Source: Candidatus Latescibacterota bacterium (GTDB lineage Bacteria; Latescibacterota; UBA2968). Taken from it: 64,000 nt of DNA. Each line of letters opens with the position of its first letter. Within the stretch, counting starts at the first letter, position 1. The position numbers and the translations under genes were made by a program. Of the stretch, positions 6,706 to 20,137 are shown piece after piece. The notes beneath the pieces are model-generated. The model saw only the letters and a list, made by a program, of their open reading frames with translations. It had not been told where the DNA came from and did not search any database. The stretch is from assembly GCA_965204745.1 (NCBI GenBank), contig OZ242010.1, positions 832,001-896,000 of the forward strand, written 5' to 3'.

Positions 6706-6774
6706 TGCACACTCCTTTGTTGTGAGTAAGAGGGGAGAGGCAAGAGGTAAGAGGTAAGATACTCTCTTAAAAGG

Positions 6775-7782
6775 TCAAGGGGTTTTCGGGGTGATTCGAT
6801 AGAATTTTTCGCCCTCAAAATCTTGGTCATGGCGCAACATGCCCCAGATCGAATGGAGCAACTTTCGCATCACCGCAACGATAGCCTGCAAAGGTTTCTT
6901 GCCGCGGGCGATGAGTTGGTCATAGAAGGCTTTGACATGGCCTTCGTGTCTGATGGCCACCCAGGCAGGCATATAGAGGGCATGGCGGAGGTACTTATTC
7001 CCGGTTTTCGAGATGCGTCTTTGTGGATTGGCGGTTCCGGATTGTTTGGGTTTGGGATCCAGGCCTGCATGTGCGACCCACTGGGGCGGTTGCATCTCCT
7101 CTGGCAAAAGGGTCAACTCGGCCAAGAGCCGCAAGGCACTCGTTTGCGCGATGCCAGGCGTCGAGCAGAGGCGTTGGTAGGCACGCTTGAGGGGCTCATC
7201 GTGCAAAACGAGATCGAGGGCTTGGCTTTCCAAGTATGCAATCCGGCGTTTGAAGTGTCGAATATTCACCTGAATATCGCGTGCGATGAGACGTGTGCTG
7301 CGGATGTGGTAGCTCTGCGCGTGGTTGCGGCTCTGTTCGCGGATGATCTCCTGCTTGAGTTGGTCAATGCGTCTGGTGAGGGCTTGCAGTTGAAGCCGTT
7401 GCTCGCTCGGCGCTTGCCAAGGCACAAAAGGCATGCGCTCGGCATAGTCGAGGATCAACAACGCATCCTTCGCATCCGTCTTCGCCCGTTGCATGCAGGC
7501 TTGGGCGTACTTGCTCATCGCTTTGGGATTGACGACCATGACCTTTGTGTGGCGATGCCGATGCAAGGCCAAGGCCACCCCCAAACTGTAAAGCCCGGTC
7601 GCTTCGAGGCACACAGAGACCATGTGCCCGCCCTTCGTGAGCCACTTCAGCAACCGCTTATGCGCTTGGGGATCATTGGCAAAGGTCGCTTGCATGACAG
7701 CTTGTCCGGGTCTGGACAGGGCAACGGACAACGTGCGGGCACTGACATCAATGCCGGCAAAAGCGGGGTGAGATTTCGACAT
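6775..7782 (-). CDS. IS110 DEDD recombinase/transposase
   Basis: GIDVS, LEATG, KTDAKDA, PGIA, AGLDP..QSG, SKTGN..LR.ALY, AVMRKL; GGAGG before ATG 7782. Confidence 0.97.
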   Translation of the reverse strand: MSKSHPAFAGIDVSARTLSVALSRPGQAVMQATFANDPQAHKRLLKWLTKGGHMVSVCLEATGLYSLGVALALHRHRHTKVMVVNPKAMSKYAQACMQRAKTDAKDALLILDYAERMPFVPWQAPSEQRLQLQALTRRIDQLKQEIIREQSRNHAQSYHIRSTRLIARDIQVNIRHFKRRIAYLESQALDLVLHDEPLKRAYQRLCSTPGIAQTSALRLLAELTLLPEEMQPPQWVAHAGLDPKPKQSGTANPQRRISKTGNKYLRHALYMPAWVAIRHEGHVKAFYDQLIARGKKPLQAIVAVMRKLLHSIWGMLRHDQDFEGEKFYRITPKTP

Positions 7783-7849
7783 GGGGGCCTCCTGTGATGA
7801 GGGGGTTGTAAGGGATCTGGTGCGCGCTCGGGGTCGCGTCCCGACCATT

Positions 7850-8030
7850 GACGCCAAGTCTACCGGTCTTGTATATGCAGCCTCAAGGGGCTTAGATACT
7901 CTTCGGCATAGACCCGGCGGTCGGGGGGCCTATCTTACCTACAAGGTCATCGCCTTCAAGAGGGGCCGGCCTTCCCCGAGCCGGGCATCAAGATGGCTTA
8001 TCTCGATACGAGGGCGCAACTCCTAATTAA
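7850..8030 (-). ncRNA. IS110 bridge RNA (left-end non-coding region); ends approximate
   Basis: Two internal loops closed by stems. LTG GGCCCCTCT (7967-7959), RTG AGGTAAGA (7940-7933), LDG AGAGTATCT (7902-7894) and RDG ATACAAG (7874-7868) match the element's flanks and ends. Confidence 0.88.
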
Positions 8031-8051
8031 CCCTTACTTCCAAGATACAAG

Positions 8052-8240
8052 AGGGGAGAGGCAAGAGGCAAGAGGTGAAAGGCAAAAAGCGAAACGCAAA
8101 AGGGGAGAGGAGTGGCCCTCTCACGTCTTGCCTCTACCTTCTCACCTTTTTTGATTGTCCTTCTTCCGTCTTGCCTCTACCTTCTCACCTTTTTTGATTG
8201 TCCTTCTCCCGTCTTACCTCTGCCTTCTCACCTTTTTGGG
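8052..8240. repeat. Purine/pyrimidine-skewed 7-bp periodic repeat tract, continuing 6727-6756 across the IS110, followed by an inverted, duplicated tract
   Basis: AAGAGGC/GAGAGGC/AAGAGGT-type units; GTCTTGCCTCTACCTTCTCACCTTTTT repeated about 3 times in 8125-8237. Confidence 0.8.
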
Positions 8241-12351: not shown

Positions 12352-12700
12352 AGTGAAAGGCGTAAGAGGGGAGAGGCAAGAGGGGAGATGGGATTTTAGC
12401 CACAAAAGGCACAAAAGGCACAAAAGGGGTACATGGCGACAGCCCGTTCAAAGGCGATCAGTGTGTAGGGGCGATGCTCTTGTGCTCGCCCAAAGATATA
12501 AGAAGCGGTCAGCGGTCAGGCCGCCCAACCCCTTAACCCCAAGTAGTCAGTAGTCAGTAGTCAGTCCCCGCACAGCCCTTCCGCAAGTGAGACGTGAGAC
12601 GCAAGACGGGAGAGGGCCACCCAGCACCCCAAGTTGTCAGTAGTCAGTCCACCCGCCCCTAGGCCCCAAGCGACCAGCCCTAGCCCCAACCCTCAAATCG
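12352..12700. repeat. Composite intergenic repeat cluster (7-mers, CACAAAAGG 9-mers, REP-like hairpin, CAGTAGT tract)
   Basis: The CACAAAAGG block and REP also occur inverted at 20010-20137; the CACAAAAGG block recurs at 42454-42630. Confidence 0.8.
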
Positions 12701-12889
12701 TCCCAACGCGAACGGCGATATGCCCCGTACTCTGCACTATCGTTCATGCGCGTTCATCTGTGGTTGCTTTTTGTTTTTTTCGTTGCGGAACCGGATCATA
12801 GCCCCCTTTGGCAAACGGATGGCAACAGGCGATGCGGCGCAAGGTCAAAGCGAGGGCGAATGCAAAGGAGTGGCGGCGGAAGGCTTCGA

Positions 12890-13540
12890 GGGCGTAGTGC
12901 AGAGGCGTTGGTAGGCGCGCTTTGGGGTCTCATCGTGCAAAACGAGTTTGAGGGCTTGGCCTTCCAAGTATGCAATTCGGCGTTTGAGGTGTCGAATATG
13001 CACCTGAATATCGCGTGCGATGAGGTGTGTGCTCCGGATGTGGTAGCTCTGCGCGTGGCTACGGTTCTGTTCGCGGCTGATCTCCTGCTTGAGATTGTCA
13101 AAGGTCACTTGCTTGATGGTTTGTCCAGGCATGGACAGGGCAACGGACAACGTACGGGCACTGACATCAATGCCTGCAAAAACGGGTTGAAATTTCGACA
13201 GAGGGGCCTCCTGTGCAGGCCAAGTCCGCGACTTGCAGGCCGACGAGGGACTGTTGAAATTTCGACAGAGGGGCCTCCTGTGATGAGGGGGTTGTAAGGG
13301 ATCTGGTGTGCAATCGAGTTCGCGTCCCGACACCTTTTCGCGCCAAGTCTACCGACCTTGTATATGCAGCCTCAATGGACTTAGATACGCTTCGGCATAG
13401 ACCCGGTGGTCGGGGGGCCTATCTCCCGTACAAGGTCATCGCTTTCAAGGGGGGACGGCCTTCCCCGAGCCGGGCATCAAGATGTCGTGTCTCGATACGA
13501 GGGCGCAACACCTAATTAACCCTTAATCCCAAGATACAAG
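12890..13540 (-). mobile_element. Degenerate IS110 copy: internally deleted recombinase remnant, intact left end
   Basis: High similarity to 7140-8051. Start codon changed to CTG, deletion between ...VTF and DNLKQEI..., 3' half missing, 29-bp duplication near 13187-13282; left-end core at 13539-13540. Confidence 0.9.
13335..13520 (-). ncRNA. Second IS110 bridge RNA with altered guides; ends approximate
   Basis: Scaffold nearly identical to copy 1; LTG GTCCCCCCT, RTG ACGGGAGA, LDG AGCGTATCT, RDG ATACAAG. Confidence 0.8.
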
Positions 13541-13572: not shown

Positions 13573-14267
13573 GTCTCAATTCCATAGTGGTTCGATTAAA
13601 AGTACCGCACCGCCTCGTCGAGGGCATCGGTGCGGCTGAGTTTCAATTCCATAGTGGTTCGATTAAAAGGGAAAGGATATAACCCAGCATGTGTTCGTAT
13701 TCCTCAGTTTCAATTCCATAGTGGTTCGATTAAAAGTTAGAGCCGGGGGTTGACCAAAAGCACCTTGACCAGGTTTCAATTCCATAGTGGTTCGATTAAA
13801 AGGCGCAGAGACCTGCGCGGCCACGGACGGACAGACGATGTTTCAATTCCATAGTGGTTCGATTAAAAGTGCTCCCTCACGATGTCCGAATGATGGGGGG
13901 ACCATCGTTTCAATTCCATAGTGGTTCGATTAAAAGCCATCCCCAGCGCTGCGCGCTCACCGCTCAGGTTGGTTTCAATTCCATAGTGGTTCGATTAAAA
14001 GGAGGCATGAACCGCATCTACGGAAAGCCCGCACCGAGTTTCAATTCCATAGTGGTTCGATTAAAAGAGCAAAGCAACTCAGGCTACAAACGTTTTTTTT
14101 TAAGATGTTTCAATTCCATAGTGGTTCGATTAAAAGTCAGGACGGAACGATCAACAAGACGGGCTTTTACGGGTTTCAATTCCATAGTGGTTCGATTAAA
14201 AGACATGCGGCCTGGGCTAAATACGTCGGCAAGCATGGTTTCAATTCCATAGTGGTTCGATTAAAAG
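13573..14267 (-). CRISPR. CRISPR array: 11 repeats of 30 bp (CTTTTAATCGAACCACTATGGAATTGAAAC on minus), 10 spacers of 35-39 bp
   Basis: Repeat starts at 13573 (variant GTCTC, trailer), 13640, 13707, 13773, 13840, 13907, 13972, 14038, 14107, 14173, 14238. The ATTGAAAC 3' end and the degenerate left repeat give minus orientation. Confidence 0.98.
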
Positions 14268-14303: not shown

Positions 14304-15382
14304 TAGGACTTACGCCATGGTCATTGGTATCGCCGGTGTTTTGAGTTGTTGTCTCAAATAGTCCTCCCATAAGCCATGTTTGACTTGATAGATGGTTTGT
14401 CCAGTCTGATAGGCGACTTGGGTCAGTCGTCCCCAAACGAGAAAGGCACACGCGATGTGGTTTCGCACAATGCGTGCCAATCGGCATTGACACTTTTCAA
14501 GTCCCGTTACCTGTTTTGCTTCCCGGTGAACTTGCTCAATCTTCCAACGCAAGTGGCACACCGCTTGTGCCACCGACGGGTCGGTTTGAGTCAAGTCGTT
14601 GGTTACGATATACGCCGTGCGTCCCATAACAGACGCGACCCGGAATACGTTCACCTTGTGGTTTTTGGGGAACCCTCTGAGTTTAATGCGTTTCCCTGTG
14701 GCCTGTTCGCGTTTTGTCCAAGTTAAGGCATCAACCCGTTGATAGGGATTTACACCTGCCGAATCGTCCACGAGGCGATTCTTTTTGATAGGACAGGAAT
14801 AGGTCTTTTGCAAGTGCTCAATGTGAAGCATGACTGCTTTCGTGGCATACCAAGTCAACATCACCACCCGCTCAAAAGGCAACTTTTTGTGATAGACCAA
14901 GAGCGACAACATCTCTTTGACGTGGTCTAACTTGGTTTTTCCATCCCCTTGCGGATCGTAAATGCGATAGTCAATCAGCCAAAACCGATCTTGAATCGGA
15001 TTGACATACACACACGTCACCACACCGATCCCCGAGATGACCCCCTTCGCATTGCCACTGTATTGCCGACGCACGAGGGCCATCTTTTTCGCATAGCGCT
15101 TATCTAAGACCGTGTCATCAAAGAGAATCACGCCCTTTGCGGTCGACGTGAGGTGGGGTTTGACGTTTTCCCAGATCACGCGCGGCGAGACGCGATCCCC
15201 ACCCAGATAGCGGTTGAGCATATCATGCGTGAACCTGTCGCTGTGATCTGCGAAATGAGTCAGGGTATAGTTGAGCGGACTGCTAAGCAAATACTGGCAG
15301 TAATCCAGGCGTGTTGGTTTCGCCATACAGACCTCCAAAGTGAGGATGGGGGGGCGATCCCGTTCTTTTTTTGTAAGTCCTA
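14304..15382 (-). mobile_element. IS701-family insertion sequence
   Basis: Terminal inverted repeats TAGGACTTAC (14304) and GTAAGTCCTA (ends 15382) enclose the transposase; no matching flanking duplication. Confidence 0.88.
14310..15326 (-). CDS. IS701 DDE transposase, possibly inactive
   Basis: FDDTVLDK, YSGN, RWKIEQ.HRE.KQ, CQCR..R..RNHI; the second Asp position reads VVMLTWY. Confidence 0.9.
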   Translation of the reverse strand: MAKPTRLDYCQYLLSSPLNYTLTHFADHSDRFTHDMLNRYLGGDRVSPRVIWENVKPHLTSTAKGVILFDDTVLDKRYAKKMALVRRQYSGNAKGVISGIGVVTCVYVNPIQDRFWLIDYRIYDPQGDGKTKLDHVKEMLSLLVYHKKLPFERVVMLTWYATKAVMLHIEHLQKTYSCPIKKNRLVDDSAGVNPYQRVDALTWTKREQATGKRIKLRGFPKNHKVNVFRVASVMGRTAYIVTNDLTQTDPSVAQAVCHLRWKIEQVHREAKQVTGLEKCQCRLARIVRNHIACAFLVWGRLTQVAYQTGQTIYQVKHGLWEDYLRQQLKTPAIPMTMA

Positions 15383-15525
15383 AGATGGTCAAAAAAATCG
15401 GCCTCACCGGAAATTTCCGAGAGAAACCCCATCGCGTCTCTCATGCTGAAAAAGACCGCGAGGCAGTTTTCAGTGTGTTCCCACAGGGTTTCAGGTGGGG
15501 CACTTTTGGCGAGCAGGTCTGTCAT
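15383..15525 (-). pseudogene. cas3: 5' fragment of cas3 (start of HD domain), cut by IS701
   Basis: MTDLLAKSAPPETLWEHT... immediately after cas5; typical Cas3 start AKS...TL.EH. Confidence 0.85.
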
Positions 15526-15528
15526 CGT

Positions 15529-16161
15529 TCACCTCGACTTTTCGTGCAAATACACCCCCCAGCCCTTGCCCATGTCTTGCAGTGCCGCGCCGCGATACGC
15601 AACGCGCTCGGTCAGCATGTAAAACGGACGGATGCCTTGCGGGCGGCGGGGGCGTTCTCGCGTAAAATGCGTTGGCAACGCTTGTAGTTGACCGTAAATC
15701 TGTTCATTCGGAAATGGCAGAAGCGTATCGCAATACGTGGTTTCAGAGACTTCTTGCAACTCGACCTCTGCAATGGATACGACCGTTGCCAATTCCGTTG
15801 AACGCCCCAACAACAAGGGATAATGCGGCACTTCGAGATGCGGCCTGAGCCACAGCGCGGATGTGTACAGATAGAGTTCTGGCGAAACGAGAAATTCGCG
15901 TTTGCAGATATTCGGTTTTGCCTTCAGCCGCGTTTGATCAAATTCGTACACCGTTTCCAAGTCGATGGCTTTGCCTCGGCTTTGAAAGACAAACCCGATG
16001 GGTGCGTCGTCGGGTGTCACCCAATCGCCTCTCGCTGCGGACAGCAAGCCGTAGAGGGTCGAAAGCGGCGGTACGGGGAGTGTGGGTTGCAATCCACTGA
16101 TAAACAATGGGTTGCGGAACGATGCGACCCATCCGCTGATGTGAACGCGAAGGACTTTCAT
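15529..16161 (-). CDS. cas5: Type I-B Cas5
   Basis: ASFRNP...QPTLPVPPLSTLYGLLSAA and LLLGRS; operon position. Confidence 0.93.
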   Translation of the reverse strand: MKVLRVHISGWVASFRNPLFISGLQPTLPVPPLSTLYGLLSAARGDWVTPDDAPIGFVFQSRGKAIDLETVYEFDQTRLKAKPNICKREFLVSPELYLYTSALWLRPHLEVPHYPLLLGRSTELATVVSIAEVELQEVSETTYCDTLLPFPNEQIYGQLQALPTHFTRERPRRPQGIRPFYMLTERVAYRGAALQDMGKGWGVYLHEKSR

Positions 16162-17150
16162 CGCGCCTCTCCAAAGTGGGCTGAAAGTTTTGTTGCCAAC
16201 TGCGAGACGACCCGATTGGGCGAATCGTAGATCACCGAGTCGGATTGTGCCAACTCGCGCAAGTCGTCATCCCGTTCATCCATAAATCCCGCCCGGCGAC
16301 CGATGTAAATGGGTTCGAGAAAACGGCTGTCGTAATCGGCGATCACCTGCCGCAGTGCCGCAACGCTTAGCTCGCCCTGTCCGTCGCGCTCGACCATCAG
16401 GTTCATGAAGGGATGATTGCCGCCCTCGAGAACCGACAGGACGATCAACTTCGGGGTTATGTCGGTCAGGTGTGAGGTCAATTTCGCGCCGCCGCTCAAC
16501 ACGGGCAATGCCTCGAGCGTTTGCTGGCAACGCCGCACGCGGATGTCGCGTGGCAAAACCCAGGGCGCGTTTTTATCCGATTGCTGCCCGCCCGCGGCTT
16601 TGATGGTTGGGAGGTGGCTAGCGGCGATGTTTTTGTACCCCGTCTTGTCGATGTTGTAGAATGCCCCGACCGCATCGAGGTCGAGCGAAAAAATGCCTTT
16701 GAGCACACAGGCATAAAACTGATGTTCGTAGGGAACCGGGTCGCCTTCATGCCGCGCCATCACGCCAAAATCATTCGTGGGCGCCTGCGGCGCAATGGCG
16801 ATCAATGGAGAACATTTGAGCGGCGAGAGTCGCGTCAAGGTCTCTTTTTTAACGGCCTTCATGTACCCAAAAACGTCATCGTCATCATAGAGGATGGGAT
16901 CGGCAGCGGTGAAGGCGATCTTCTTTTCCCGTTCAATCGGCGAAAGTGCCCAATCGAACTCCTCGCCCAAGGTGGTTCGCCACCAATTCCGCCACGCCTG
17001 CCCGGAAACATAAGGGTACGCGGCTTTCCCTTTGCGAAGCGTTTTGACGACCACGATGTTTTCCGTCGCTTGCGACGCTTCGGTTCCCGCGTTGTTGAGC
17101 GCGGAGTGCGGGGCGTCGATGAGCACCAGTCCGATGAGATGTTTCGACAT
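16158..17150 (-). CDS. cas7: Type I-B Cas7 (Cst2/DevR type)
   Basis: SALNNAG, PYVSGQAWR.WWR, DDDVFGYM, TRLSPLK, GGAK. Confidence 0.93.
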   Translation of the reverse strand: MSKHLIGLVLIDAPHSALNNAGTEASQATENIVVVKTLRKGKAAYPYVSGQAWRNWWRTTLGEEFDWALSPIEREKKIAFTAADPILYDDDDVFGYMKAVKKETLTRLSPLKCSPLIAIAPQAPTNDFGVMARHEGDPVPYEHQFYACVLKGIFSLDLDAVGAFYNIDKTGYKNIAASHLPTIKAAGGQQSDKNAPWVLPRDIRVRRCQQTLEALPVLSGGAKLTSHLTDITPKLIVLSVLEGGNHPFMNLMVERDGQGELSVAALRQVIADYDSRFLEPIYIGRRAGFMDERDDDLRELAQSDSVIYDSPNRVVSQLATKLSAHFGEAR

Positions 17151-17152
17151 GG

Positions 17153-18529
17153 TTAAACCTCCTCATTTTCGTCGTTTGTGAGCGTTTCAATTTCGTCATC
17201 TTCTTTGACGAAACCGCTCTCTTTCAACCAATTGTGGAGTTGTTCGTAAATTCTAAAGACCAACAAATCCCGGGTTTCTCGCCACAATGTCATCTGATCC
17301 GCCGATTCTGGAAACAGATGTGTGACGTAATCATCCAGCAAAAAAAGCGGGTCTTCTTCGCCCTGCCTCAGGCGGTCTCGAATCACGAATCGCAGAACAT
17401 TTCGACATACGCCATAGCTGTTGGCGCGTTCGAGTTGTCTAAGGCGGAGGTCCCTTTCGTCTTTGCGAATGCTCTTTGCAATTGCGTCGCCGACCTCCTT
17501 GATGGCATTGAGCCTCAATTCATCCACCTTTTGCACCTCCTTTAGGTAAAGGGAAAGAAAGGTCCAGTTGCTACGTGCTTTTCGCGCACGCCTGTTCATG
17601 AAAAATCCGACGATGGATCGCCCCAGCAAGAGGCGTTCGTAAACGGAATTCGGGCGGTTTTTGTAATCTTCCTCCGATTTGACTTTGTCCCATCTGACGC
17701 GCTGATACCCGCTTTGGACAATTCGTCGCCACGCCTTGCGAAATTCGTGCTGATAAGCGTAGCAGAGGAAGCGAAAGACAGGCGCGGGCAGGTGAAAAAT
17801 TTCGAGTTCTGGATTTTGATTGTAATTTGAAAAGCAGTAGATCTGCATGGCGATATTTTCATCGAATCGCCTCTCCTCATAGCGAATCATTTCGCTGGTC
17901 ATATAAAAAAGCCCATTGCGCGGATTGGCATATCCCGGATTGTAACACCCCGAAATTTCCCTGCGAAGTGCTTGTTGGCGGACATCGTCAATACAGATGC
18001 GCGCCCAAGAACTCAGCGCCCGCCATGAATTGGAATGCAGCATCAAGAACTTGCCAGCACTCGCAACGAATGCGAGCGGGCCGAGTTGAATCGCCAACGC
18101 ACAAGCCGCACAATAGCCCATTCCCTCTGCGAAAGTTGGAAAAAAATTACGCAACTTGCCCGATCCTGTGAGCGGGATATTTTCCCGTTTGAGCATGCGA
18201 TTTGCCTCACGCCTTCCACAACCGATGCAATCGCCGGTTGAGCCGATCTCCTCTATCGCGTCAAGATATTCTCCACAGAGTTCTCGGAGCAATTCGACGC
18301 GATTGCGTTTGCTGTACGCTGAGTTGGTCAATACGCTGTTGGGAAAAATGGAGTGGAGATTCTTCCAGTCCGCGGTTGTTTGCATCATAGGCGCGATGTC
18401 CTCGACGATTTGCTCGAGGTTGTGAATCGCAATCTCTTCCGGCTTTGTCCCTCGGCCCACCCATTCACAAATCGCGCTGACACCCGCATCGACGAATGGA
18501 TTGCCCATCAGTTTTTCATAGATCGCCAT
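17153..18529 (-). CDS. cas8: Type I-B large subunit Cas8 (Cst1/Cas8b1, CxxC-CxxC type)
   Basis: GNPFVDAG, IFPNS, CIGCG...PLTGS...NFF...CAAC, FSNY. Confidence 0.88.
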   Translation of the reverse strand: MAIYEKLMGNPFVDAGVSAICEWVGRGTKPEEIAIHNLEQIVEDIAPMMQTTADWKNLHSIFPNSVLTNSAYSKRNRVELLRELCGEYLDAIEEIGSTGDCIGCGRREANRMLKRENIPLTGSGKLRNFFPTFAEGMGYCAACALAIQLGPLAFVASAGKFLMLHSNSWRALSSWARICIDDVRQQALRREISGCYNPGYANPRNGLFYMTSEMIRYEERRFDENIAMQIYCFSNYNQNPELEIFHLPAPVFRFLCYAYQHEFRKAWRRIVQSGYQRVRWDKVKSEEDYKNRPNSVYERLLLGRSIVGFFMNRRARKARSNWTFLSLYLKEVQKVDELRLNAIKEVGDAIAKSIRKDERDLRLRQLERANSYGVCRNVLRFVIRDRLRQGEEDPLFLLDDYVTHLFPESADQMTLWRETRDLLVFRIYEQLHNWLKESGFVKEDDEIETLTNDENEEV

Positions 18530-18566
18530 AGTGCCCCTCCTTCTCTCGCCCTGCTACGCGAGTGTT

Positions 18567-18993
18567 TAGGTCGTGTTGACATTTTATTTTTTGACGTTAC
18601 ACACAGATTAGCAAATGTGTTGCTTGCTCATTTAAGGCGTTTCCTTTGAGGGCTTCTCGCTCTGGTTGCTCTGATGGCGTTGCGCGAGGGGACCTATCCC
18701 CCGGCCCCTTTCCTACGAGGAAAGGGGAGTAAAGTCCCTTTGATGGCTTCTAGCTCTAGTTGCTCTGATGGCGTTGACCGAAGGCATAAAGCGATTAAAA
18801 ATCCCTCATCAATACCCTCGCAAAACCGCTCACTGTTCCCCCTTCCTCGCAGGAAGGGGGGCTAGGGGGGTAGGTCCCGATAAGGAGCGACTGTTTCAGT
18901 TTCTCAAATCGAGAACATATCCTGCGATAGGGCTTGATTTTCTCGATAAATCGCTCAAGCCGGTGCATGGCTCGTAAATGTCAACATAACCTA
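18567..18993. mobile_element. MITE-like element between cas8 and cas6
   Basis: Inverted ends TAGGTCGTGTTGACATTT / AAATGTCAACATAACCTA; end segments shared with 50557-51057 and 32371-32688. Confidence 0.8.
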
Positions 18994-18994
18994 G

Positions 18995-19903
18995 TCAATC
19001 GAACCTGCTTGGTTTTCTTTTATACGCTGGCATGCCAAACCGCTGATTGCTCGGGTTGTTGCGGTGCTCGTGCTCAGGATTTCGGCCCTGTGGCGTCATG
19101 CCAAACCGCTGGTTGTTCGGGTTCTTGCTCTCTGACCGCTTGGGTTTTCTTATGACCTCTGCCATGCCGAATCCCACGCTGTTCTTGTCTCCGAAGCCGC
19201 ATTCATAGCCCACGCGAATCAACTCGGGCGCGCCAATGACTTGGAAGGGACACAGAACTCCGCGAATCTTGACGCCTTTGAAATCGACCAAGCGCGACAC
19301 CCGGCCCTTTCGCTTTGCGATGTACGCTTGGTCAAACGCCATAGCAAAGGACTGATCTCTTGGCGCGTGTCCGTGAATGGCTTCGTACTTCCGAATCAGG
19401 TTTTGGCGCACCAACTCCGAGAATTGCGGGTCATTGGCACGGCAGTAGTGCATCACGAGTTGCCCGTCGCGTTCGCGCTTGGTCGTCATCGTTATCGCGG
19501 CCAAACAGCGGAAACGCATCTGCCGGTCAAAACGCGGGGCACGCGGCACAGTCACATCGCGCACCCGGAGTTGCTTGTCGGCAATTTGCAAGACGCCCGT
19601 CTGCATCAAAGACGCGGCAAAGTTCTCTAAAAACGCTTGTTGCGGCGACGAGACATACCACGTCAAAGAGAACTCAAAGCGGATGCGGTCCCCTTGCACA
19701 ACGCGCTGTTTTGCCATCAGTTGCGAAAACGTGAACAGCTTGAACCCCCGACGGTCGCGTTCATAGCCGGTCTCGTGGAGAAAGTGCGCGTATTCCGGGT
19801 CGGATTGTTTGAGAAATTGATAGACGACACCGGTGAGGAGGTGGTTGTAGTTGATGGGCAATGTCACGCCTTGCCCGATATCGCAGATGATCTTAATTCG
19901 CAT
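18995..19903 (-). CDS. cas6: Cas6 endoribonuclease with C-terminal extension
   Basis: LPINYNH, FLHETGY, FKLFTFS, GFGDKNSVGFG; start MRIKI at 19903. Confidence 0.95.
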   Translation of the reverse strand: MRIKIICDIGQGVTLPINYNHLLTGVVYQFLKQSDPEYAHFLHETGYERDRRGFKLFTFSQLMAKQRVVQGDRIRFEFSLTWYVSSPQQAFLENFAASLMQTGVLQIADKQLRVRDVTVPRAPRFDRQMRFRCLAAITMTTKRERDGQLVMHYCRANDPQFSELVRQNLIRKYEAIHGHAPRDQSFAMAFDQAYIAKRKGRVSRLVDFKGVKIRGVLCPFQVIGAPELIRVGYECGFGDKNSVGFGMAEVIRKPKRSESKNPNNQRFGMTPQGRNPEHEHRNNPSNQRFGMPAYKRKPSRFD

Positions 19904-19912
19904 GGCAGGACC

Positions 19913-20137
19913 CTTGTATCTTCGGGCGAGCACCGGGGCATCGCCCCTACGACGGGGATTGGGCGGGGCGGGCTGACAACTGACAACTTGAGAGGCACAG
20001 CGCGGTGGCCTTCTCCCTCTTGTATTTTTGGGCGAGCACCGGGGCATCGCCCCTACACACTGCTCACCTTTGAACTGGCTATCGCCAGTTGTACCCCGCT
20101 CGTGCCTTTTGTGCCTTTTGTGGCTTTTGTGGCTAAA
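19913..20137. repeat. Two REP-like hairpins (CTTGTATCTT-GGGCGAG...TCGCCCCTAC) plus 7-mer and 9-mer tracts
   Basis: Copies at 19913-19950 and 20019-20056; relatives at 8243-8273, 12465-12502, 21066-21103. Confidence 0.85.

Follow-up and report, generated by a model that had tools for sequence, protein, structure and literature searches.

A bridge RNA gene beside a wrecked recombinase frame in a Latescibacterota genome: the probable fossil of a divergent IS621/ISCro4-like sublineage

Why does a full-length bridge RNA gene stand beside the wreck of a recombinase frame, and do its guides, which differ from those of an intact neighbour, still direct anything? The question is raised by a 64,000-nt stretch of the genome of Candidatus Latescibacterota bacterium (assembly GCA_965204745.1, contig OZ242010.1, positions 832,001 to 896,000), called the window below. 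An initial annotation, made from the letters of the window, had described at 12890-13540 an orphan bridge RNA, naturally reprogrammed and retained after its recombinase decayed. By direct reading and by alignment to an intact element of the window (copy 1), positions 12891-13538 on the minus strand were found to be a decayed IS110-group element, here named copy 2. The starting observation of the annotation stood, as the RNA gene is full-length and no working recombinase goes with it. We consider copy 2 to be a neutral fossil, left by an older and divergent sublineage of an IS110-group insertion sequence that resembles IS621 and ISCro4, and give this reading a probability of about 0.75. Its bridge RNA most likely does nothing now.

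Guides and fold of the copy 2 bridge RNA

Copy 1 served as the reference for all comparisons. It is an intact 1293-bp element (6757-8049, minus strand), equal to the consensus of 30 genome copies, with the bridge RNA at 7858-7988 and the recombinase gene at 6775-7782. The recombinase of 335 residues matches the Pfam families DEDD_Tnp_IS110 (PF01548, E 1.2e-24) and Transposase_20 (PF02371, E 4.8e-20), and it aligns with ISCro4 over residues 7-326 (E 7.6e-40) and with IS621 over residues 8-326 (E 5.8e-36). The GIDVS, CLEAT, KTDAKDA and SKTG motifs are all present. Copy 1 is thus an IS110-group, IS621-like element by its DEDD RuvC-like and Tnp domains, and its layout is that of the group: the ATG is preceded by 267 nt of non-coding left end, the stop is followed by 18 nt, and both borders have CT. 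CT stands before the left end and at the element end in all 52 full-length copies of the genome. Of this layout, copy 2 preserves the left end with its CT and lacks the right end.

The bridge RNA gene of copy 2 (13347-13477, minus strand, 131 nt) was recognised by its predicted fold and by the covariance model R1, and is predicted to hold a target-binding loop followed by a donor-binding loop; the features named next lie on the same strand, and the guides of both copies were assigned after the IS621 model (PMC11208160, PMC11208158). The left target guide (LTG) GTCCCCCCT at 13448-13456 predicts the left target CCCCC-CT. Its register was set from 45 A-type copies, in which the LTG CCCCT-CT equals the flank of the copy itself. 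The right target guide (RTG) ACGGG, followed by the core complement AG and the handshake pair AU (13421-13429), predicts the right target CCCGT. In the donor loop, the left donor guide (LDG) AGCGTATCT at 13383-13391 departs from the family right end AGAGTATCT by a single distal mismatch, a variant also present in the intact element D_1297026, while the right donor guide (RDG) AUACA is followed by the core complement AG and the donor-loop handshake GU (13355-13363). The G of this handshake fits position 7 (C) of the predicted left target. Written in full, the copy 2 loops are GTCCCCCCT + ACGGG-AG-AU for the target and AGCGTATCT + AUACA-AG-GU for the donor.

The corresponding loops of copy 1 are GGCCCCTCT + AGGTA-AG-AU and AGAGTATCT + AUACA-AG-AC. 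Its flanks (left ...CCCCT-CT, right TACCT) and its ends (TGTAT... and ...AGAGTATCT) match these loops, so that all four copy 1 guides fit their substrates. The final 9 nt of the A-type right end are identical to the LDG AGAGTATCT of this type, and its AUACA-AG is complementary to the left-end CT-TGTAT. Against the same family ends, the donor guides of copy 2 match at 8/9 positions for the LDG and 7/7 for the RDG with the core.

The guide differences listed in the initial annotation were reproduced exactly by direct reading, all on the minus strand: LTG, GGCCCCTCT in copy 1 and GTCCCCCCT in copy 2 (13456-13448); RTG, AGGTAAGA and ACGGGAGA (13429-13422); LDG, AGAGTATCT and AGCGTATCT (13391-13383). 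The annotation had made its reading hang in part on substitutions being denser in the guides than in the scaffold, and this is what was found. The two RNAs differ at 12 of 131 nt, among them 8 of the 28 programmable positions and 4 of the 95 scaffold positions (Fisher one-sided p = 7.6e-4). The claim that the stems are conserved while the guides differ is thus correct beyond chance; the stems themselves are imperfect, at 13443 and at 13407. The divergence is concentrated in the target-reading positions, where 7/14 differ, in comparison to 1/14 donor-reading positions.

At 13443 (minus strand), a G>A change unique to copy 2 breaks the third pair of a 4-bp hairpin in the target-binding loop. This pair is G-C in 17/17 intact-lineage sequences and in 22 of the 23 sequences of alignment A2. 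The G>A change at 13407 opens one basal pair, a state that an intact genome copy and another genome, G018, also show.

The predicted folds of both copies consist of two stem-loops with internal loops, with z-scores of only -1.5 and -1.2. Standard pairs fill 95.9% of 510 pair cells, versus 29-56% when the partners are slid, and 24 of the 30 pairs are invariant. Because these pairs never vary, the fold is without covariation support: covariation of the stems was indistinguishable from shuffles in the 17 intact-lineage sequences, which are too alike to inform. Model R1, built from these 17 sequences with copy 2 excluded, scored copy 2 at 148.3 bits over its full length (1-131), and the scored training members at 148.5-164.7 bits. 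Over neither copy did Rfam 15, a release that may hold no bridge RNA model, yield a match, whether the gathering threshold was applied or E values up to 1 were allowed. [quoted passage not shown]

Decay and borders of the element

The remnant at 12891-13538 (minus strand; alignment to copy 1, blastn) comprises the left end, the bridge RNA gene, the 5' untranslated region (UTR) and two pieces of the recombinase frame. By blastn against the genome it is 88.5-88.9% identical to every other left end. The annotation had held that the recombinase lost its start codon and most of its catalytic domain, and alignment showed how. The ATG of copy 1 reads CTG at 13266-13268 (minus strand), a substitution unique to copy 2 at family position 268. 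A net insertion of 67 nt follows, made of a 30-nt repeat and 37 nt: identical 30-nt repeats at 13282-13253 and 13215-13186 flank the 37-nt insert, and within this segment (13186-13282, minus strand) the frame is broken after codon 5. Local DNA alignment placed an internal deletion junction at 13093-13094 (minus strand), where about 315 nt, or codons 37-141, are gone together with the CLEAT and KTDAKDA catalytic motifs. At 12891-12900 (minus strand) the homology to the element stops near codon 208 and a duplicated 0.4-kb segment starts. What is left amounts to 106 of the 335 codons (residues 1-36 and 139-208), with GIDVS as the sole surviving catalytic motif; the remnant frames gave no Pfam match. 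The 37-nt insert (13216-13252), bracketed as it is by the 30-nt duplication, may be a small repeat element, and exact matches of 34-38 nt to it lie at two genome sites, near G000:C1:3483012 and 1213280 (coordinates of the genome contig).

The contigs of four DNA runs were compared with the remnant. Those of run X1, which may be the source sample, contain copy 2 exactly. In run X3, a 396-nt contig with a second organism label covers 12844-13215 with 9 differences and 1 gap (about 97.6% identity). It spans both internal junctions, so the relic is older than some strain divergence. Over the RNA itself, contigs of the other runs show A-type bases and are thus uninformative on copy 2.

A CT core dinucleotide stands at the left junction (13539-13540, minus strand), and the flank beyond it is GAATCGT. 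As the annotation had stated, this flank does not match the LTG; GAATCGT-CT agrees at 1/5 positions plus the core. Of the 64 left-end junctions counted in the family, nearly all carry a C/T-rich heptamer-like word, which is absent at the copy 2 junction and at an inverted tip at 1264383. The 3' break joins the 0.4-kb segment, whose 93% paralog lies 91 kb away. Since the flank has no target word and a duplicated segment begins at the 3' break, both borders of copy 2 look like secondary junctions. The left border may also stem from a half-match insertion. Such recombination, with insertions that match one guide arm and the core, is described for IS621 (10.64898/2026.08.31.748434), and this route would suit copy 2 with its unmatched left flank as well as those live copies whose right flanks do not match. 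The 0.4-kb segment itself is non-coding, contains heptamer tracts and occurs twice in the genome (window 12499-12900 and G000:C1:935931-936342, 93% identity).

The anatomy of copy 2, the fit of guides to flanks across the family, the missing cognate target and the equal decay of RNA and dead frame are shown by the data. We infer the following order of events, and with it the lack of function. While active, the sublineage would have evolved its own specificity (left CCCCC-CT, right CCCGT) and kept the donor ends of the family. Death would have come afterwards, by loss of the start codon, the 67-nt insertion, the 315-nt internal deletion and loss of the 3' third. The borders would then have become secondary, one in spacer-like DNA beside a CRISPR array and the other at the duplicated 0.4-kb segment. 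In this history the small size of the bridge RNA gene and the youth of the relic, which has about 2% of copy-specific change, would explain why the gene survives.

Guide sets across the family and the origin of the copy 2 guides

The genome (5.48 Mb, closed) contains 52 full-length copies: 37 of one type (30 of them identical), 8 at 96% identity, 5 at 88-89% that carry their own guides, and 2 singles. Partial copies number 18. The annotation had pictured a family that diversifies over heptamer variants and had proposed an alignment of guides with flanks; the alignment was made and bears this picture out, as 49/52 full-length copies sit where their own target loop fits best, most of them at 10/10 positions with wobble. 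The right flanks of A-type copies (n=45) are TACCT in 24 cases and TGCCT in 17, the latter being a U-G wobble to the guide. TACCT sites are 24 occupied versus 5 free, and TGCCT sites 17 occupied versus 65 free. In the B type, the guides CGCCT-CT / AAGTA go with the flanks CGCCT-CT / TACTT. At least seven guide sets are present in the genome, and more, again with flanks to match, occur in relatives from two other genomes of the genus. Elsewhere, a loose scaffold pattern matched two records of metagenome-assembled genomes only, both from Latescibacterota, and gave zero matches in metagenome_contigs. The family was found only in a few Latescibacterota genomes and is new to the databases searched. 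The different guides of copy 2 are in keeping with ordinary divergence between lineages of a family whose targets are C/T-rich heptamer tracts.

When could the guides of copy 2 have diverged? Hiraizumi et al. (PMC11208158) found that target position 7 is paired with the donor-loop base that follows the core complement. In 22 scorable sequences of alignment A2, this handshake base pairs with left-target position 7 canonically in 16, by wobble in 5 and not at all in 1. It is G in copy 2, whose left guide predicts C, and A in the types that predict T. On the right side, ACGGG pairs 5/5 with CCCGT, the right flank of 7/10 elements of G018. The agreement of the handshake base and the match to CCCGT point to divergence while the lineage was active. 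Thus, the specificity of copy 2 appears to have been gained while the lineage, or its parents, were active, and its guide set is internally coherent and amounts to a real alternative specificity. The word "reprogrammed" in the annotation, if it means after decay, does not agree with this.

Drift after death would mean that the guides changed by random mutation once the recombinase was lost, and that the new specificity is meaningless. The guides are unpaired loop positions, free to change, and the G>T change in the LTG at 13455 is unique to copy 2. However, positions unique to copy 2 number 14 of the 574 aligned (about 2%), far too few to produce 8 changes in 28 guide positions. Most of the guide states are common to other members, the LTG being that of E-type relics and the RTG that of a 196-bp mini-element described below. 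Moreover, the donor-loop handshake base changed together with the LTG, and the donor guides are almost unchanged. We regard drift as highly improbable.

Another history would join an E-type left guide to a mini-element-type right guide by recombination or gene conversion, in a pair that never belonged to an active lineage. Target-loop segments do move between copies: C_602771 is a mosaic with a B2-like target-loop segment (1/58 differences) on an A96/D-like backbone (0-1 differences per 60). No live relative with the copy 2 guide pair was found in 40 related genomes and in an exact-pattern scan of genome_contigs, and a scan of metagenome_contigs for the copy 2 right guide with the hairpin gave 0 matches. 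The combined target has 0 genomic sites, which would suit such a relic as well. On the other hand, copy 2 is about 11% distant from all other left ends throughout, with no obvious mosaic block, and its handshake base agrees with the left guide, though the E-type relics have this base and guide too. We consider a recombinant origin unlikely.

The E-type relics and a left-end tip (G000:C1:921772, 1263487, 2089466 and after 1433018) share a left context that is conserved, a repeat ending ...TTCCCCCT. The word CCCCCCT is followed by TCCTC at 138 genome sites and by TCCTG at 94. The extinct E-type sublineage apparently targeted another dispersed repeat. A further side observation concerns G000:C1:1121577-1124187, where one heptamer (TACCTCT) is all that separates an A96 copy from an A copy in head-to-tail arrangement; each targeted a tract beside the other.

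Retention, use in trans and relation to known systems

Is the RNA gene of copy 2 kept by selection? The annotation called it retained. Substitutions unique to copy 2 number 3/131 in the RNA, 4/74 in the 5' UTR and 7/307 in the dead frame, and 6 of the 7 frame changes alter the residue (codon classes by hand arithmetic). The RNA thus changed as densely as the dead frame. Among the partial copies, read from 77 match rows, 7 include the RNA region (copy 2 and six others) and 11 do not. These counts do not bear out retention, and as far as the sequences tell, no sign of selection keeping the copy 2 bridge RNA is seen.

Several points weigh against the view that copy 2 is an inert fossil. Its scaffold is essentially intact, at 148.3 bits under R1 versus 148.5 for the lowest intact-lineage member, and it has 1 unique change versus about 2.7 expected at the dead-frame rate, a comparison of low power that leaves weak constraint possible. 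The relic also lies directly downstream of the CRISPR array, whose repeats end in ATTGAAAC; we take this end to imply that the array is transcribed on the same strand as the relic, and if so, read-through into the RNA gene is possible. In addition, a bridge RNA supplied in trans works experimentally (PMC11208160), and the target and donor loops of one complex may come from two RNA molecules (PMC11208158).

A scan for a sigma-70-like site on the minus strand found none upstream of the copy 2 RNA. The consensus it used is of the E. coli type and might not hold for this phylum, and the scan was also empty upstream of the live copy 1 RNA, two further points against the fossil view. The right end of copy 1 carries TTGACC, which after circularisation would lie 18 nt upstream of TATCTT, and it is likely that this is the -35 hexamer of the family, acting only once circularised. 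For IS621, a -35 box within the right end, restored by circle formation only, is described (PMC11208160), and integrated loci express bridge RNA weakly (PMC13626964). Copy 2 has no right end and hence cannot rebuild such a promoter.

In the annotation, the RNA was suggested to work in trans with the intact recombinase about 5.5 kb away. As a special partner this neighbour was rejected, being one of 37 near-identical copies (30 identical). In a broader form of the idea, the copy 2 RNA is made, for instance as a read-through product of the CRISPR array, is bound by the A-type recombinase and steers A-type circles to new sites. Its donor guides do fit A-type ends (LDG 8/9, RDG with core 7/7), its scaffold is intact by model score, RNA in trans works in experiments (PMC11208160), one complex can take its loops from two RNA molecules (PMC11208158), half-matches suffice for some insertions (10.64898/2026.08.31.748434), and the right flank CCCGT of two A-type copies pairs with the copy 2 RTG.

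The full 12-nt target CCCCC-CT-CCCGT (CCCCCCTCCCGT), however, has 0 occurrences in the 5.48-Mb genome, CCCCC-CT is at no left-end junction of a live element, and the target loop of copy 2 is the best explanation for none of the 52 elements. The two insertions with CCCGT have the left target CCCCT, which fits the left guide of the mini-element or of the A type, and copy 2 was rejected as their guide for this reason. The left half CCCCT is found at only 10 of about 650 CT-CCCGT sites. Together with the broken hairpin pair, the lack of a promoter-like site upstream and the decay of the RNA at the rate of the dead frame, these results make a working orphan guide improbable. Thus, the trans use proposed in the annotation is allowed by the literature and conceivable, but the absent target, the absent promoter-like site and the absent signature insertion leave it unsupported.

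The annotation had also placed the predicted right target CT-CCCGT in local repeat tracts. Both sites exist (8206-8212 on the plus strand, and the complement at 12606-12612); two, however, is not above chance, as about 8 are expected of a random 7-mer on both strands of the window. Genome-wide, CTCCCGT has 649 sites, which is about the random expectation. The local sites were rejected as meaningful targets on account of this chance frequency.

Guidance of one element by the loop of another deserves separate treatment, since three insertions in the genome fit another element's guide better than their own. One is element C (G000:C1:602782-604074; locus L063 is its left end), whose site matches the guides of element D at 10/10 and its own at 7/10. 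The other observations revolve around a mini-element at G000:C1:2972661-2972856 (locus L067), 196 bp long and containing bridge RNA only. It consists of left-end bases 1-187 fused to the right-end terminus GTATCT, and it keeps the whole target loop and a donor loop without the closing 3' strand. Its guides are CCCCT-CT on the left and ACGGG on the right, and it shares ACGGG with copy 2 only. It lies in a heptamer tract, with the flanks CCCCT-CT (left) and CCCTT (right).

Two A-type copies, each 1-5 changes from the master (G000:C1:1927357-1928660 and 5150702-5152003; loci L071 and L072), are inserted at CCCCT-CT-CCCGT, a site that fits the mini-element loop at 10/10 and their own loop at 7/10. 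The right half CCCGT occurs at only 10 of about 659 non-cognate CCCCTCT sites, and the chance that at least two of four such insertions fall at CCCGT-bearing sites is about 1.4e-3 (hand arithmetic). A pathway that uses truncated target-loop RNA is described (10.1101/2025.10.25.684509). Nevertheless, we find it doubtful, though less so than an orphan guide in copy 2 alone, that target loops of dead or miniature elements (copy 2 and, more convincingly, the mini-element) act in trans on the live 37-copy family. An equally simple explanation of the two CCCGT insertions is gene conversion of a former ACGGG-type element to the A type, and the mosaic C_602771 shows that such exchange happens.

Copy 2 matters little by itself, since a very active insertion sequence has left many such relics. 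The family is of more interest, as a natural data set for bridge recombination: one closed genome with 52 insertions, readable flanks, visible wobble and shuffled target-loop modules. If cross-element guidance were true, an IS110 swarm would gain a wider target range from fossil guides, the landing sites of live copies would still be influenced by dead ones, and predictions of specificity would have to weigh every guide in the cell, beyond that of the moving element.

The family resembles IS621/ISCro4 (PMC11208160, PMC11208158) in many respects. These are the recombinase with DEDD/RuvC-like and Tnp domains, the long left end with a predicted two-loop RNA, the short right end and the CT core, the left guide in target top-strand sense with the right guide as its complement, the handshake bases after the core complement, and a -35-like hexamer in the right end. 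It differs in that it targets C/T-rich heptamer tracts and not repetitive extragenic palindromic elements, and in that its RNA is without an Rfam 15 match and its stems, in a closely related set, without informative covariation. Copy 2 differs further by having no recombinase, right end or cognate flanks.

Natural bridge RNA loci without a recombinase were not described in the portions of the bridge RNA literature searched, though the supplementary data of PMC11208160 may list some. Recombinase-only IS110 elements of about 800 bp without a 5' UTR, putatively active, are described (10.64898/2026.08.14.744561), and they imply that RNA and protein from separate loci can meet in trans. They are the mirror case, protein without RNA, whereas copy 2 is RNA without protein and has no sign of activity. 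In CazIS110-1 (10.1101/2025.10.25.684509), a separate RNA made of the target loop only cooperates with the full bridge RNA during transposition. No closer precedent is at hand for the mini-element, or for copy 2 should it have any role; its short RNA, however, comes from the same active element, while the candidates here are separate dead loci. In ISPpu9 of Pseudomonas putida (PMC12288879), orphan ssr9 copies and a unit like a miniature inverted-repeat transposable element are found away from the transposase gene with element ends on either side, and mobilisation in trans is proposed for them. Unlike the RNA considered here, Ssr9 is not a bridge RNA, and its position is downstream of the transposase gene.

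The surroundings of copy 2 are given for context. A CRISPR array of 11 repeats with spacers of 35-39 nt lies at 13573-14267 on the plus strand, and its degenerate terminal repeat and the left end of copy 2 are 34 nt apart. Type I cas genes on the minus strand (cas6, a CXXC-type large subunit, cas7 and cas5) precede the array, with an IS4-like transposase gene of the DDE (Asp-Asp-Glu) type between them and the array (features at 13573-14267, 14310-15407 and 15529-20047). No cas1, cas2 or cas3 was found among the scanned frames near the array. Remains of mobile elements are present on both sides of it. Beside copy 1, a tandem array at 8119-8237 consists of 2.8 copies of a 43-nt unit of heptamer variants, and near copy 2 a 9-nt repeat, CACAAAAGG, occurs three times at 12401-12427.

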